Of a stretch of DNA of 4,828 nucleotides, positions 2-4,437 are shown one piece after another. Positions within the stretch are counted from its first letter, which is position 1. Every line of letters begins with the position of its first letter. The stretch lies in IMG/VR virus record IMGVR_UViG_2541047125_000007; one strand, 5' to 3'. Under the pieces are notes generated by a model, which searched no databases, had not been told where the DNA came from, and saw nothing but the letters and a program-made list of their open reading frames with translations. Both the position numbers and the translations under genes were made by a program. The stretch is from a virus. Its lineage: Duplodnaviria > Heunggongvirae > Uroviricota > Caudoviricetes.

Positions 2-53
2 ATTGATGTCACGACGGAAGATTTAGCAAGTGCGCTTGATGTGACGGAAGACG
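2..53. repeat. Two direct iteron-like repeats (TTGATGTCACGACGGAAGA and TTGATGTGACGGAAGACG)
   Basis: Copy 1 is at about 3-21 and copy 2 at about 36-53, differing by a 3-nt indel and one substitution. Both contain the GTCAC/GTGAC core seen in the downstream iterons and encode a repeated DVT(T)ED peptide in the initiator. Confidence 0.4.
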
Positions 54-865
54 TAATTGATTCAATTTTGCATGCAATGCAGGGGCGGGTTCTGGATGGT
101 GACCTTATTTCCGGATGGGAAAAACGTCAGGTGCTGAAAGAGGACAATGGTAATGTTTCGCAAACCGCAAAATCCCCGGCAGAGCGCAAGAGAGCGCAGC
201 GGGAGCGGGAAAGACTGCGGAAGCAGAACACTGATTGTCACGATGAGTCACGACGCGTCACGCATATGTCACGACAAGTCACGACAGATACAGATACAGA
301 TAAAGAATTAAACCCCACACATAACGCGCGCATGCGCGAGAGTGCTCCGACCAGTGAGTCGAATGGCGCGCCGTTGCAGACAGCCGAACCTGAATACCTG
401 GACGGCCTGAGCGAACCGATCGGGAAATTTCCGATGACTGGTGTCTGGCAGCCGTCGCCGGATTTTCGACAGCGGGCAGCAGTGTGGGGTATGGCTCTGC
501 CTGAGCCTGAGTTTACACCTGCTGAGCTTGCCGCATTCCGGGATTACTGGATGGCGGAGGGGAAGGTTTTCACGCAGGTTCAGTGGGAGCAGAAATTTGC
601 CCGTCACGTGCAGCACGTCAGGGCACAGGTAAAACCAGTCAGCAAGGGGGGAAGCCATGCAGCATCAGGTGGCACGGCATCACGGGCAGTTCAGGAAATC
701 CGGGCTGCACGCGAACAGTGGGAACGTGACAACGGATTTATCAGCAACGGAAACGGCCTGGAAGCTGTGGGAGCTCATGGGGGAGGTGTATTCGAACCGC
801 TGGACTCAGAAGAACGGGGCCGCACCTTCGAAGCTCTGGATTGCCCAGATTGGTGCGATGACTGA
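2..865 (+). CDS. Phage replication initiator, 5'-partial, with a DnaT-like C-terminal domain
   Basis: The frame is open from window position 2 with no upstream stop, so the true start lies left of the window (the ORF track's GTG at 41 is internal). Stop is TGA at 863-865. Residues from about nt 410-630 (PIGKFPMTGVWQPSPDF...FTPAELAAFRDYWMAEGKVFTQVQWEQKFARHVQ) closely match my recollection of the C-terminal ssDNA-binding domain of E. coli primosomal protein DnaT. A basic linker (AERKRAQRERERLRKQ) is followed by the iteron-encoded segment, as in lambda O-type initiators with an internal ori. Confidence 0.8.
   Translation: MDVTTEDLASALDVTEDVIDSILHAMQGRVLDGDLISGWEKRQVLKEDNGNVSQTAKSPAERKRAQRERERLRKQNTDCHDESRRVTHMSRQVTTDTDTDKELNPTHNARMRESAPTSESNGAPLQTAEPEYLDGLSEPIGKFPMTGVWQPSPDFRQRAAVWGMALPEPEFTPAELAAFRDYWMAEGKVFTQVQWEQKFARHVQHVRAQVKPVSKGGSHAASGGTASRAVQEIRAAREQWERDNGFISNGNGLEAVGAHGGGVFEPLDSEERGRTFEALDCPDWCDD
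233..340. repeat. Putative replication origin: five helically phased TCACGAC-type iterons, an AT-rich tract, then a 12-bp GC palindrome
   Basis: TCACG cores start at 238, 248, 258, 269 and 279 (spacing 10, 10, 11, 10 bp). They are followed by (GATACA)-like repeats and the AT-rich stretch agatacagatacagataaagaattaaa (about 285-311), then the perfect palindrome CGCGCATGCGCG at 327-338. This is the same order of elements as ori-lambda, which lies inside the O gene. Confidence 0.6.
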
Positions 866-1319
866 ACAGCAAATCCGTCTGGTGTGCCGTCAGTGCATGG
901 ACCGCTGCCGGGCGGGTGAAACGTGGCCCCCGGACCTGGCTGAGTTTGTTGCGCTGATTTCGGAGAGTGGGGCAAATCCATTTGGTCTTACGGTGGATGC
1001 CGTGATGGAAGAGTACCGGCGCTGGCGCAATGAATCCTGGCGATACGACGGGAGTGATAAATACCCGTGGCCACAGCCTGTGCTGTACCACATCTGCCTC
1101 GAAATGCGTACCAGAGGGATTGAGCGCCAGATGACGCAAGGTGAGTTAAAACGACTTGCAGAACGGCAACTGACGAAATGGGCAAAGCAAGTTGGTAACG
1201 GGATGAGTATTCCCCCGATCCGGAGACAACTCGCATCGCCGAAGTGCCCGCAAGGGCCAACGCCAATTGAATTACTGAAACAGGAATACGAGCGCCGGAA
1301 GGCGGCTGGTTTTGTTTGA
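657..1319 (+). CDS. P: Lambda P-like replication protein (DnaB helicase loader family)
   Basis: The C-terminal two thirds align by eye with lambda P (WPPDLAEFVAL ~ FLPSPGQFVAW; YPW; GELKRLAERQL ~ AELRRKAADEL; IPPIRRQL ~ IPEPVKQL). ATG at 657 is preceded by a strong SD (AAGGGGGGAAG at 644-654), and the frame opens just after a TAA at 630-632. Stop is TGA at 1317-1319. Alternative starts are ATG 777 (GGGAG SD) or ATG 858; the N-terminal similarity to lambda P seems to extend upstream of 858, favouring 657 or 777. Confidence 0.75.
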   Translation: MQHQVARHHGQFRKSGLHANSGNVTTDLSATETAWKLWELMGEVYSNRWTQKNGAAPSKLWIAQIGAMTEQQIRLVCRQCMDRCRAGETWPPDLAEFVALISESGANPFGLTVDAVMEEYRRWRNESWRYDGSDKYPWPQPVLYHICLEMRTRGIERQMTQGELKRLAERQLTKWAKQVGNGMSIPPIRRQLASPKCPQGPTPIELLKQEYERRKAAGFV

Positions 1320-1352
1320 ATCTGAGAAACGATTTTGTCGGAGGAAATTTTA

Positions 1353-2069
1353 ATGGAAACCGTATCTGACGCACTGAAAGCACTGAAAAAAGCCTCTTCA
1401 CATGTGGTGGCAGCTCGCCTTGGAATCAGTCGTGAAGAGGCTGTCAACGAACTGTGGAAACTGAAACGCCGTGGAGAAGCGGATAACAAGGGGGCGATAT
1501 GGTGGCTGACTCAGGCTGGTGAAAGTGAACCGGTGTCACCGGTACCGAAAGTGACGGCGCAAATGCTGACAGAGGCGATTGAACAACATGGCCCACAAAC
1601 GGCGGATGAACTGGCATTGATGTTCGGAATTACCTCCCGCCGGGCGAATTCATCGCTGGCAATGGCAATCAGCAAAGGGTGTCTGATTCGCGTGAATCAG
1701 GATGGTAAATTTCGTTACTGCATACCGGGCGTTGATTTACCGGCAGAGCCGAAAGCAGCATCCGTAGCTGAAACGGAGGGTAAAGCCCTTCCTCAGCCAG
1801 CTGGTGTTGCGTTACCAGTCCAGGAAACGGCTGCACAGGAAGAAATTAAAACAGAAGCGGTGGAGGACATTGTGAAGTTGCAGCAATCGTTCACTGAAGC
1901 GAAAGCAGATGACCTGATTCTACCATCGCTGCATGTGGCTAACCGCGAGCTGCGCCGGGCGAAAAGTAATGTTCAGAAGTGGGAGCGAGTCTGTGCTGCG
2001 CTACGGGAACTGAACAAACACAGGGATATTCTCCGGGATATTACCGCCACCAGAGAGCAGCAGCGGTGA
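1353..2069 (+). CDS. Hypothetical protein with two winged-helix-like segments and a C-terminal coiled-coil-like region
   Basis: ATG at 1353 with SD GGAGGAA at 1340-1346 (the ORF track's 1335 start is a TTG in the same frame). Stop is TGA at 2067-2069. The segments [38 protein letters not shown] and [43 protein letters not shown] look like tandem wHTH units; the charged, heptad-like C-terminus suggests oligomerisation. It may belong to a DUF-type phage family, but I cannot confirm this from memory. Confidence 0.7.
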
Positions 2070-2383
2070 GTGGCTGGAAGAAGTGGCGCTGGGCTGAAAT
2101 CCTGATACTCCGGCAGTGTGCGGGAACGATGAGAGTCGAAAGCATCGGTTATCTGATTGGCCGTAGTGAGTCAGCCGTCAGGACGAAAGCGCGGGAACTG
2201 GGTATCAGCATGATGTTACGGGGTGATTATCACCAGTCAGCCAAATGTTCACAGCGTGATATTGAGCTGGCGTGGCAACTGCATCAGCGTGGTGTACCCC
2301 GACGGGAAATTGCCGAAAAGTTTGGGATGAAGTTGGGCGCAGTGAATAACTACGTTTATTTCGACAGGAGGGTTCAGGAGTGA
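2066..2383 (+). CDS. Small helix-turn-helix DNA-binding protein
   Basis: GTG at 2066 overlaps the upstream stop as GTGA (translational coupling); alternative start is ATG 2111. Stop is TGA at 2381-2383. [35 protein letters not shown] is a classic HTH of the resolvase or sigma region-4 type, and the N-terminal half ([10 protein letters not shown]...[24 protein letters not shown]) resembles a second DNA-binding motif. The upstream part of the track ORF (from 1979) lies inside the previous gene. Confidence 0.6.
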
Positions 2384-2682
2384 GGGTGAGGGTTTATATC
2401 GCCGGTCCGATGACGGGATATGAAAATTTTAACCGCGAGGCATTTCACAAAACGGAAGAGGTGCTGAAACGGGAAGGGCATACCGTTTTAAACCCGGCAG
2501 TACTTCCGGACGGGCTGACTCAGCCACACTACATGGATATTTGCATGGCAATGCTCCGTTGCGTGGATGCGGTTTACATGCTGAAAGGCTGGCAGCAGTC
2601 GGCAGGTGCAGGGGCTGAGCTGGCACTGGAGGAGAAACCGGGCCATGCGGTGATTTTTCAGGAGGTGGGCAGTGAATATTGA
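2380..2682 (+). CDS. DUF4406-like protein (nucleoside 2-deoxyribosyltransferase-like fold)
   Basis: GTG at 2380 overlaps the upstream stop (GTGA) with AGGAGG at 2366-2371; alternative GTG at 2386 has AGGAG 5 nt upstream. Stop is TGA at 2680-2682. The motifs VYIAGPMTG near the N-terminus and GW..SAGAGAE.A.A...G..V near the C-terminus fit this superfamily as I recall it. Confidence 0.7.
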   Translation: MRVRVYIAGPMTGYENFNREAFHKTEEVLKREGHTVLNPAVLPDGLTQPHYMDICMAMLRCVDAVYMLKGWQQSAGAGAELALEEKPGHAVIFQEVGSEY

Positions 2683-2989
2683 CCCGGCGATAACGATTGA
2701 TATGGCCCTGAACGCCGGCCTGGCACTTCTTGGTTATTTCTACATTATGTTCTGCAGCGGACGATGGCTGTCACTGTTGTTCATGAAAAAATGGAATAAA
2801 CGCCGTAAGCAGGAGCAACGCCAGAAGGCAATGGATGCATTTTTCGAAGCCTTCGGAATTGACGGCATGGAACCAGGGGATCCAGCTCGCGCAATCAGCA
2901 GAGGGGGTGTAGTAATCCTTGTATATCGGAGTGAAGAGAAAAATGACGATCACAAAACAACGTGTAGAAGAAATCATATCCCGCATTGA
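2672..2989 (+). CDS. Small membrane protein with one predicted TM helix and a basic juxtamembrane segment
   Basis: GTG at 2672 has AGGAGG 6 nt upstream and overlaps the previous gene by 11 nt; alternative start is ATG 2702. Stop is TGA at 2987-2989. The hydrophobic stretch ALNAGLALLGYFYIMFCSGRWLSLLFM is followed by KKWNKRRKQEQRQK. Confidence 0.55.
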   Translation: MNIDPAITIDMALNAGLALLGYFYIMFCSGRWLSLLFMKKWNKRRKQEQRQKAMDAFFEAFGIDGMEPGDPARAISRGGVVILVYRSEEKNDDHKTTCRRNHIPH

Positions 2990-3260
2990 AATGTATGGAC
3001 ATGGTGCAGGGTATATCGCAGACGAGGTTAATGATCTGGCTATACTGGCGCTGAATTTATCAAATATCGCGAACCTGAAGCGATACGAGCTTGATATGGG
3101 AGGTTGCGACTCGTGCGGTCAGGATTGTGGCGCTGATATGACTGAAGATCCTGATGGTGATTATGTCCTGTTTGATGACGTGGTTAAGTTGTTTGAATTT
3201 GATACAACCACTCAAAAGTTAGAAATCCCGGCAAAGGAGGCAGCCAGTGGGCAAGATTGA
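2943..3260 (+). CDS. Small strongly acidic protein with a Cys cluster (CDSCGQDCG)
   Basis: ATG at 2943 is preceded by GGAGTGAAGAG; the ORF track's 2919 start is a TTG in the same frame. Stop is TGA at 3258-3260. By manual count there are about 20 or more Asp/Glu against fewer than 10 Lys/Arg in about 105 aa. The start overlaps the 3' end of the membrane-protein gene by 47 nt, so the start is uncertain (alternative ATG 2991). Confidence 0.55.
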   Translation: MTITKQRVEEIISRIEMYGHGAGYIADEVNDLAILALNLSNIANLKRYELDMGGCDSCGQDCGADMTEDPDGDYVLFDDVVKLFEFDTTTQKLEIPAKEAASGQD

Positions 3261-3684
3261 CTATCAGGCACTGCGTGAGGCAGCACAAAACTATCAATCG
3301 ACGCTGGCGTGGTATCAGGCTACCCCGGACAGCCCAAATGCTGAACGGGATTGTGATGCGGCTCTTGCTGCGTTTAAGCGTCACATCCGTCATCGGGAAG
3401 CGGATATTATCGCTGATTTGCTGGATGGACTGGAAGAAGCAAAATCACAACTCAACGAGCAGCGTGAGTATTACGAAGGCGTTATCTCTGATGGGAGCAA
3501 GCGTATTGCTGAACTGGAAGCGCGGGAAGTTCAATTACCGACTCGCTACGACCTTCGATATGGACACCCGATAAATGCAGATGAGCGACATGTCATGATA
3601 CCTAAAGAAAATGGCAGTTGGCTTTACCTGATTGACCTAGAACACGCATTACGCGTCGCTGGCATTCGCATCAAAGGAGAGTGA
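3247..3684 (+). CDS. Hypothetical protein with an Ea22-like N-terminal motif and a coiled-coil-like middle region
   Basis: GTG at 3247 with SD AAGGAGG at 3232-3238; stop is TGA at 3682-3684. The N-terminus IDYQALREAAQNY resembles the conserved N-terminus I recall for ead/Ea22-like prophage proteins (low-confidence family call). The central EADIIADLLDGLEEAKSQLNEQREYYEG...AELEAREVQ is heptad-like. Confidence 0.6.
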   Translation: MGKIDYQALREAAQNYQSTLAWYQATPDSPNAERDCDAALAAFKRHIRHREADIIADLLDGLEEAKSQLNEQREYYEGVISDGSKRIAELEAREVQLPTRYDLRYGHPINADERHVMIPKENGSWLYLIDLEHALRVAGIRIKGE

Positions 3685-3685
3685 G

Positions 3686-3877
3686 ATGAACGGACAAATA
3701 TCAATTGTTCGACCAGGAGCATGTGACGATCGCGAAATACGAATGATTATTCGTCTGGCGATGGGGAAAACAATAACTGCTCTCATTACTCCAGAAAATC
3801 TCGCATTAGCATTAACAGGAAAGTCAGACATGCCAGTAGAGCTAAAGCTGCGAAATGTTGAGATTAAGGTGAAATAG
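3686..3877 (+). CDS. Small hypothetical protein (63 aa)
   Basis: ATG at 3686 is 2 nt after the upstream stop, with SD AAAGGAGAG at 3672-3680. Stop is TAG at 3875-3877. No recognisable motif. Confidence 0.5.
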   Translation: MNGQISIVRPGACDDREIRMIIRLAMGKTITALITPENLALALTGKSDMPVELKLRNVEIKVK

Positions 3878-3879
3878 CT

Positions 3880-4437
3880 ATGACCACTATTACCAAAGAT
3901 CGACTGCTGACAATCCAGCATTGGCGCGAAACATACGGACCGGGTAGCAACGTTGTGCTTCCAGCAGAAGAAGCGGAAGAGCTGGCACGGATTGCGCTGG
4001 CATCACTGGCAGCAGTATCGGATGAACGAGCAGCCTATGAATTATTTATGGAGAAGCGTTTCGGAGAATCTGTAGATCGCCGCAGAGCAAAAAATGGCGA
4101 TAGAGAATACATGGCATGGGATATGGCGCTTGGCTGGATTATCTGGTGTCACCGCGCCGCCATGCTTCAGGCTGGAAACTTTCGGGAAAATAAGGGTTCG
4201 TCAACCAATAATTTTCGGATAATCTCGGAAACGTCAACCAACTCTCCGGCAATCCCTGATGAGGTGTTGTCCGCAATCCTGAAGGTCGCCAGGCTTCGTG
4301 CAGATTTCGATGCTTCTGAAGTGGACAGGCGAGGTATCGGTAGTTGTCTGGATGAGGCCGAGCAAGAACTTATCGTTACCATTAACGAATACGCCAGTCA
4401 GATCGCAGTAGAAGCGACACAGGGGGAGAACCAATGA
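3880..4437 (+). CDS. Hypothetical phage protein (185 aa)
   Basis: ATG at 3880 is 2 nt after the upstream stop, with a weak SD (AAGGTGA). Stop is TGA at 4435-4437. It is in the same orientation and tightly packed with its neighbours. I do not recognise the family with confidence. Confidence 0.65.
   Translation: MTTITKDRLLTIQHWRETYGPGSNVVLPAEEAEELARIALASLAAVSDERAAYELFMEKRFGESVDRRRAKNGDREYMAWDMALGWIIWCHRAAMLQAGNFRENKGSSTNNFRIISETSTNSPAIPDEVLSAILKVARLRADFDASEVDRRGIGSCLDEAEQELIVTINEYASQIAVEATQGENQ

Follow-up and report, generated by a model that had tools for sequence, protein, structure and literature searches.

How does a phage initiator that carries a domain of the host primosomal protein DnaT work with a helicase loader of the lambda P type encoded by the very next gene? 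The question is raised by a 4,828-nucleotide stretch of Caudoviricetes DNA (IMG/VR virus record IMGVR_UViG_2541047125_000007; the whole stretch is called the window below), which comes from the early-right part of a lambdoid, Rac-like prophage in Escherichia coli and holds its replication module. In lambda, the N-terminus of P binds the initiator O. A first-pass annotation of the window proposed that the DnaT-like domain replaces the P-binding function of O and co-evolved with the N-terminus of the P-like protein, a proposal that comparison with other phage loci does not support: the domain does not appear to choose the loader, and the loader follows the tail that comes after it. The reading preferred here, at a probability of roughly 0.55, is that the DnaT-like domain is a generic platform for holding a DNA strand, paired with an "address" peptide that fits the phage's own loader.

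The pairing of a DnaT-like domain with a P-like protein is itself already known. RefSeq names such a pair in hundreds of E. coli genomes, in the phiV10 record gp43 is labelled "DnaT family" and gp44 "lambda P family", and DopC, an O-like protein whose C-terminal domain is of the DnaT kind, has been described adjoining the P-like DopE (Brezellec et al. 2017, PMC5509034). With protein names in RefSeq, annotations of phages and a publication already recording it, the pairing adds nothing new, and the value of the locus lies in two by-products, namely a rule linking initiator tail to loader and an overlapping P-like gene that is probably mis-called.

A DnaT-like domain in a mosaic initiator

The initiator gene and its parts are as follows, all on the plus strand.

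2..865, plus strand: replication initiator, represented by the last 287 of its roughly 345 residues, with the N-terminus outside the window (frame open to the left edge)
237..284, plus strand: iteron cluster inside the initiator gene, four copies of GTCACGA and a degenerate GTCACGC at about 10-nt spacing (repeat family D1)
284..320, plus strand: A+T-rich stretch (ACAGATACAGATACAGATAAAGAATTAAA...) adjoining the iterons, read from the sequence; also the recombination joint of the mosaic
300..427, plus strand: linker from the origin-binding domain to the DnaT-like domain, with variable sites lacking codon periodicity
428..628, plus strand: three-helix domain like the C-terminal domain of DnaT, with predicted binding of single-stranded DNA (ssDNA) (Pfam, PDB match, AlphaFold2 model)
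629..862, plus strand: flexible C-terminal tail of 78 residues, candidate loader-recruiting element (AlphaFold2 predicted local distance difference test score, pLDDT, below 60)
677..730, plus strand: predicted amphipathic helix TASRAVQEIRAAREQWER in the tail (low-confidence helix, model residues 96-113, with disorder after it)

The open reading frame (ORF) of the initiator, in frame 2, continues past the left end of the window and stops at 863-865, and its full-length homologue (L001 5828-6865) has 345 residues. Residues 143-209 of the partial protein, that is nucleotides 428-628, match the Pfam family PF17948, "DnaT DNA-binding domain" (E 1e-17, 64-67 bits against a gathering cutoff of 25), and the profile search of the 410-630 fragment by itself, which the first-pass annotation had put forward as a check, gives E 1.4e-18. 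A phmmer search against PDB returned C-terminal domains of DnaT as its only significant matches (E 2.6e-20 to 1e-16; the best being 6aep at 2.6e-20, 9zbt at 3.6e-19 and 4ou6 at 4e-19), with 54-58% identity to the solved DnaT structures. In an AlphaFold2 model, pLDDT is 88-95 across the domain, and Foldseek aligns the model with 4ou6_C, the DnaT84-153 crystal structure, at a template modelling score (TM) of 0.93, a root-mean-square deviation (rmsd) of 0.8 Å and 58% identity; the description of this region as DnaT-like is thus borne out.

The residues on which ssDNA binding depends are kept as well. Mutagenesis of DnaT showed that binding requires Y127, W128, K133, F135, K143 and R146 (PMC4132743), and every one of these residues is unchanged in the window and hardly varies among 78 distinct phage copies ranging from E. 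coli to Aeromonas. Among 66 distinct relatives of the window, variation in 428-628 falls mostly at the third codon position of the initiator frame (40 of 72 variable sites, p 3e-4), which indicates that this frame is under purifying selection. The C-terminal domain of DnaT makes a filament around ssDNA (PMC4132743; PMC13377028).

The likeness to E. coli DnaT (PDB 4OU6, 2RU8, 9ZBT/9ZBU), which comprises the three-helix fold together with the sequence identity and the six binding residues, extends to the C-terminal domain only. With NF002770, the model of full-length DnaT, the initiator reaches 94 bits where the cutoff is 201, and the match covers model positions 80-156 of 179, so that the window protein was rejected as a DnaT orthologue on both cutoff and coverage. 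Unlike DnaT, the window protein has neither the N-terminal oligomerisation domain nor the acidic PriB-binding linker, its tail differs, its DnaT-like domain is embedded in an iteron-binding initiator within a prophage, and the next gene is P-like instead of dnaC. The initiator matches phrog_1408 (E 1.5e-119) and phrog_3729, initiator families distinct from lambda O that are annotated "replication initiation protein", and the RefSeq/NCBI name for the exact protein is "DnaT-like ssDNA-binding domain-containing protein"; apart from the DnaT domain, the full-length homologue has no Pfam match at E up to 0.1.

Exact copies of GTCACGA number five in the window, the one outside the cluster lying at 8-14, against 0.41 expected, and five were reached in 0 of 200 shuffles. 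By analogy with ori-lambda, which lies inside gene O, the iterons and the A+T-rich run are the presumed origin, with the stretch at 284..320 as its putative unwinding element. Directly past the iteron cluster at 237-284, and inside the A+T-rich run, lies the joint of a mosaic. Similarity between the window and the Rac-SA53 and PPompW phages begins at 286-302 and continues through the P-like gene, and the window initiator, the "YdaU" of Rac-SA53 and YdaU of K-12 part ways around DTDTDKELNP (window ~286-302). Rac-SA53 "YdaU" joins an N-terminal DUF1376 domain to the DnaT-like domain, tail and P-like gene of the window, whereas in K-12 YdaU the same DUF1376 domain is followed by an O-like C-domain and the DnaC-like YdaV. 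When 163 complete initiators with the DnaT-like domain were grouped into 10 N-terminal clusters, the window-type C-terminal block was found on at least 6 of them. The module is therefore mosaic, to a greater extent than the first reading of the window had supposed, with at least six unrelated N-terminal domains joined to the C-terminal block just past the in-gene iterons.

Between the joint and the DnaT-like domain, variable sites in the linker (300-427) are spread over the codon positions as 23/29/20 (p 0.42), unlike in the flanking coding parts, and protein-level constraint on the linker is weak. Two short GC-rich palindromes, CGCGCATGCGCG (327-338) and AATGGCGCGCCGTT (362-375), lie in linker-coding DNA immediately to the right of the A+T-rich stretch. 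An IMG/VR initiator, L258, has the N-terminal domain and iteron-encoded linker of the window protein, and carries a RATTFFGPDRNFENPW-type C-domain with a PPGFRG tail at the place of the DnaT-like domain.

The arrangement resembles that of lambda O/P in several respects: iterons in the initiator gene are followed by A+T-rich DNA, a modular initiator combines an N-terminal DNA-binding part with a C-terminal effector, and a loader homologous to P lies directly downstream and overlaps the initiator. The window protein nevertheless has neither lambda O's N-terminal domain nor its C-terminal one, the DnaT-like domain standing in the place of the latter; its tail, at 78 residues, is longer than the roughly 25 residues of lambda O, and initiator and loader genes probably share about 209 nt, compared with 4 in lambda.

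Initiator tails and the loader gene that follows

The DnaT-like domain is carried by 54 phage records, usually under the names "primosomal protein I" or "replication initiation protein", and occurs in viable phages including phiV10, epsilon15 and SPN1S. A first scan of IMG/VR yielded close relatives only (at least 86% identity), and a second was made with another lead sequence for diversity. The domain stands upstream of long P-like loaders in phiV10, Tyrion, L004 and L006, upstream of a DnaC-like loader in Aeromonas pAEv1818, and without any loader gene in epsilon15 and SPN1S. Since it is found with P-like, DnaC-like or no loader, the domain is loader-agnostic and does not appear to choose its partner.

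The peptide that follows the domain, by contrast with the domain itself, predicts the next gene across about 170 loci with zero exceptions:

Tail VPHWNSPEAWEDFL: 38 loci, next gene long P-like
Tail LD[WF][NH]NTDWI: 7 loci, next gene long P-like
Long window-type tail: about 90 loci, including the distant L008, L140, L141 and L164, next an overlapping P-like ORF
Tail ...RD[VI]N..PEPD..IP.GFRG: about 40 loci, no phage loader next
The same ...RD[VI]N..PEPD..IP.GFRG tail in cellular DnaT itself: L125 and L127, dnaC next

LDxxNTDWI is the extreme C-terminus of lambda O, and ...IPPGFRG that of E. coli DnaT and of K-12 YdaU. Two scans of IMG/VR anchored on the tail motif alone (loci L175-L294 and L295-L414) gave the same split, and loci L089-L173 likewise belong to those on which the rule rests. 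For IPPGFRG followed by a stop, all 120 ORF ends are initiator-like, with five or more different C-domains among them; the next gene is DnaC-like in 56, a loader is lacking in 52, the contig ends in 12, and a P-like gene follows in none (0/108). For LDxxNTDWI, among 120 ends, the next gene is P-like in 105 of the 109 that do not lie at a contig edge and DnaC-like in 0, and three of the four exceptions are chance matches in tiny ORFs.

The split is independent of the C-domain that precedes the tail. Lambda O and a PPGFRG-tailed O-like initiator are 39% identical over the C-domain (E 4e-26), and their tails differ past it, while the window and L004 are 74% identical over the DnaT-like domain only, with different tails and different types of P. 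Nature thus supplies four combinations: a lambda O C-domain with an NTDWI tail precedes P, a lambda-O-like C-domain with a PPGFRG tail precedes a DnaC-like loader or none, the DnaT-like domain with an NTDWI tail precedes P, and the DnaT-like domain with a PPGFRG tail precedes no phage loader (SPN1S). Loader type tracks the C-terminal tail and not the DnaT-like domain, and these natural swaps of domain and tail point to the last 10-20 residues of the initiator as the selector of the helicase-loading route.

Comparable pairs are known. In phiV10 (gp43/gp44), Tyrion, TL-2011b, PPompW and Rac-SA53 ("YdaU/YdaV") an initiator annotated as "DnaT family" is followed by a "lambda P family" gene, as in the window; phiV10 and Tyrion have the short tail VPHWNSPEAWEDFL, a long P (261 residues) and a small overlap, whereas the window class has a long tail and extensive overlap with P. 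YdaU/YdaV of the K-12 Rac prophage belong to the same prophage family as the window and share its gene order and recombination joint, but YdaU, with its DUF1376 N-domain and O-like C-domain, lacks the DnaT-like domain, has the tail VNTVSLPDSAIPPGFRG and precedes a DnaC-like ATPase. DopC/DopE of Cellvibrionales and Oceanospirillales share with the window the placing of a P-like protein beside an O-like one that bears a DnaT C-terminal domain; that pair is resident on the chromosome, lacks iterons and was proposed to act at oriC, whereas the window pair lies in a prophage with iterons. The DnaT_C domain of DopC was regarded as a substitution linked to domestication (PMC5509034), yet the domain is common in phages.

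Within the window tail, which ends in ...FEALDCPDWCDD, the helix TASRAVQEIRAAREQWER is the part conserved in the initiator frame; it is nearly invariant in the 66 relatives and recognisable in Klebsiella, Salmonella and L141. The DnaT-type ending ...PDSQIPPGFRG is absent from the window tail.

At a DNA unwinding element, DnaA holds the single strand. The initiator of the window, seen as a set of interchangeable pieces (N-terminal origin-binding domain, iteron and A+T-rich linker, DnaT-like domain and 78-residue tail), could act in a comparable manner: it would assemble on the iterons, the adjoining A+T-rich DNA would open, and the clustered DnaT-like domains would bind the exposed single strand and hold it as a short filament. 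The tail, not the DnaT-like domain, would then recruit P-DnaB, so that DnaB would be placed on the held strand. Capture of ssDNA at the melted origin is on this evidence the likely role of the domain, with recruitment of P-DnaB left to the tail. The C-terminal domains of DnaT hold lagging-strand ssDNA in this way in the preprimosome (PMC13377028).

Several points weigh against this reading. The loci are related phages and not independent samples, and domain, tail and loader could travel together merely through adjacency. The window class of tail has no secure short motif in common with lambda O: it has LDCPDW, one residue shorter, which resembles the LDLTNTDW of lambda O only loosely, and the P frame, which overlaps here, constrains these bases too. 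Because epsilon15 has the domain without tail or loader, the domain may contact a host factor directly. Finally, every functional step of the scheme is one that we infer.

Three other explanations have to be set beside a strand-holding platform with a separate address. If the DnaT-like domain had taken over the task of the lambda O C-domain, binding the divergent N-terminus of P directly and co-evolving with it, then inheritance of domain, tail and P-like gene as one block, as in the similarity to Rac-SA53 and PPompW from ~286-302 through the P-like gene, would be readily understood, and so would a P-like N-terminus unlike that of lambda P. The same domain, however, accompanies long P proteins of the lambda kind in some phages, DnaC-like loaders in others, and elsewhere stands without a loader; homology to the initiator of L004 ends with the domain itself, tail and P type being different; and lambda-O-type C-domains show the same tail-dependent switch, all of which makes direct binding quite improbable. 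A host-directed role, in which the domain docks on PriA and loading at the origin passes through the restart machinery, besides or instead of P, takes up the link to PriA/PriB/PriC raised in the first-pass annotation and draws on the close identity to the DnaT C-terminal domain, which docks on PriA via a conserved hydrophobic surface (PMC13377028). It also draws on the SPN1S-like phages, which have the domain with DnaT's own tail and no loader, and on epsilon15, which has the domain alone. Against this, the prophage encodes its own P-type loader, lambda P takes DnaB directly from the host, and the window protein lacks both the acidic PriB-binding linker of DnaT (D66, D70) and the N-terminal domain through which DnaT oligomerises. 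Docking on PriA is plausible from the DnaT structure published in 2026, but hijacking of the host primosome seems unlikely overall.

Less probable again is a domain that serves oligomerisation or structure, or that is decaying in a defective prophage and no longer takes part in DNA binding. Defects are frequent in Rac-like prophages, copies of the initiator with truncations and frameshifts are known (P0061, P0065), and oligomerisation of DnaT requires its C-terminal domain to contact itself (PMC13377028); but the strong third-position bias of variation in the initiator frame, the near-invariance of the six ssDNA-contact residues from E. coli to Aeromonas and the retention of the domain in the viable phages phiV10, epsilon15 and SPN1S weaken both versions.

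The phage data bear on DnaT as well. The PPGFRG tail ends many unrelated phage initiators; where a loader gene follows it is DnaC-like, in other cases there is none, and P-like genes never occur at this place, which suggests that it is an address for the DnaC route. E. coli DnaT carries this DnaC-type peptide on the same ssDNA-binding domain, upstream of dnaC, and dnaT-dnaC resembles, as these data suggest, a domesticated module of an initiator half and its loader. In such a scheme "...PDxxIPPGFRG" may direct an initiator to DnaC-type loaders, whether of phage or host, and "LDxxNTDWI", "HWNSPEAWEDFL" and the long tail of the window to P-type loaders. More speculatively, lambdoid initiators in general would bear interchangeable loader addresses, and DnaT would be the C-terminal half of a domesticated phage initiator whose tail recruits DnaB-DnaC in restart. 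How the DnaT-containing preprimosome recruits DnaB-DnaC has been stated to be unknown (PMC13377028), the 20-residue C-terminal tail of DnaT is described in the literature as highly flexible only, and the string PPGFRG has no occurrence in the searchable literature; recruitment of DnaB-DnaC by the PPGFRG tail of DnaT is the specific hypothesis that the phages offer.

K-12 Rac YdaU (L003 4120-4977), without a DnaT-like domain, and SPN1S gp46 (L091 1985-2800), with the domain and no phage loader, both end with DnaT's own ...PDSxIPPGFRG, and the NCBIfam DnaT model matches YdaU at model positions 161-179 only. Two IMG/VR initiators one residue apart (L253 and L259), with a lambda-O-like C-domain and a PPGFRG tail, differ in that a DnaC-like gene lies 7 nt downstream in one and no loader gene in the other, and because near-identical initiators occur with and without it, a phage loader seems dispensable for this tail class.

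The overlapping P-like gene and its start

Three features bear on the start of the second gene.

644..651, plus strand: Shine-Dalgarno-like AAGGGGGG, 5 nt before ATG657, read from the sequence
657..1319, plus strand: helicase loader of the lambda P type, proposed full length 220 residues (PF06992, phrog_109, frame test, Foldseek)
858..865, plus strand: ATGACTGA, where RefSeq begins the P-like gene across the stop codon of the initiator

The assignment of this gene to the lambda P type, made at first sight of the sequence, is confirmed by PF06992 (E 8e-16, 58-59 bits, cutoff 26), by phrog_109, "P-like helicase loader" (E 6e-54), and by Foldseek, in which the best matches of the predicted structure are the lambda P chains in 9oa1 (E 5e-6, 204 columns); the model, of moderate confidence (mean pLDDT 67.5), aligns with domain III in 8v9s at TM 0.87 and rmsd 1.7 Å. 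With the domain limits of lambda P taken from PMC12661323, domains II-IV are kept, with a 15-residue deletion in domain II. Residues 1-26, at the position of the "lasso" or domain I of lambda P, are not conserved and are predicted to be disordered, the first predicted helix beginning at residue 27. The N-terminus thus does diverge from lambda P, as had been noticed.

RefSeq calls the gene at 858-1319, giving 153 residues, but a start near 657 is very probable. All 66 relatives keep the P frame open from ATG657 onwards, and the P-frame peptide DLSATETAWKLWELMGEVYSNRWTQKNGAAPSKLWIAQIGAMTEQQIR is almost invariant among them where the initiator frame is variable over the same bases, with the opposite pattern upstream. 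Variable sites at the third position of the initiator frame and of the P frame number 15 and 10 in 657-776 and 3 and 12 in 777-857 (p 0.005), and in 866-1316 the third position of the P frame takes 99 of 157; the P frame is under purifying selection from ~735, and selection switches from the initiator to P around 740-776. The upstream part of the P peptide is also conserved in Klebsiella and in distant members, and Met68 of the P-like protein, which is the RefSeq start, is Leu in many homologues. In Klebsiella, GGAGG lies 8 nt ahead of the ATG equivalent to ATG657.

The open frame, the third-position shift, the conserved upstream peptide, the exchange of Met68 for Leu and the Shine-Dalgarno-like run together indicate that the product is most likely of about 220 residues (657-1319). 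A start at 858 for the family as a whole was rejected on the invariant P-frame peptide at ~735-857, on Met68 being Leu and on the helix from residue 27, although a shorter second product from 858 is possible through translational coupling. A start at 657 entails a likely 209-nt out-of-frame overlap with the 3' end of the initiator (its last 69 codons). Database calls of the P-like gene give 220-223, 177-181 or 153 residues, and the widely propagated 153-residue "replication protein P" of E. coli is probably truncated at its N-terminus, since the true gene would share about 200 nt, read in a different frame, with that of the initiator.

The conserved Gly-Gly codons of the initiator tail (KGGS, TGGN) form the Shine-Dalgarno-like run of the P-like gene (window 644-651; L008 ~713-717). 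Odd gene products occur in the databases (phrog_15931, P0065, P0061, P0107, P0196, P0174), including a PHROG of 482 positions that runs across initiator and P, a product in which a deletion has joined the tail of the initiator with the C-terminus of P, frameshifted copies, and calls joining P with DUF1627 or DUF1376; they are probably frameshifts, deletions or artefacts of gene calling.

Prophage context and downstream genes

The first 1400 bases of the window are 96% identical to prophages of O157:H7 strains, in which racR, a helix-turn-helix (HTH) gene, a YdaT-family gene, the "DnaT-like ssDNA-binding domain-containing protein" and "replication protein P" are followed by DUF1627, DNA-binding protein, DUF4406, DUF4752, Ea22-like and DUF551 genes. 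The prophage context of the window likewise comprises racR and YdaS/YdaT-like genes, the P-like gene, DUF1627 and further genes. Of the 5426 complete E. coli genomes searched, 1816 contain window-like DNA, with at least 80% of the query covered in 658.

A minus-strand ORF at 308-658 (116 residues) was considered and rejected as spurious, the pattern of variation there matching plus-strand frame 2. The genes downstream of the P-like gene (window 1335-4437) are typical lambdoid "nin-like" cargo:

1335-2069: DUF1627
to 2383: small HTH/sigma-70 region-4-like protein
2380-2682: DUF4406
2672-2989: DUF4752
3247-3684: Ea22-like
3880-4437: DUF551

Part of the same region, 1335-4437, is shared at 96% identity with Stx1a phages.

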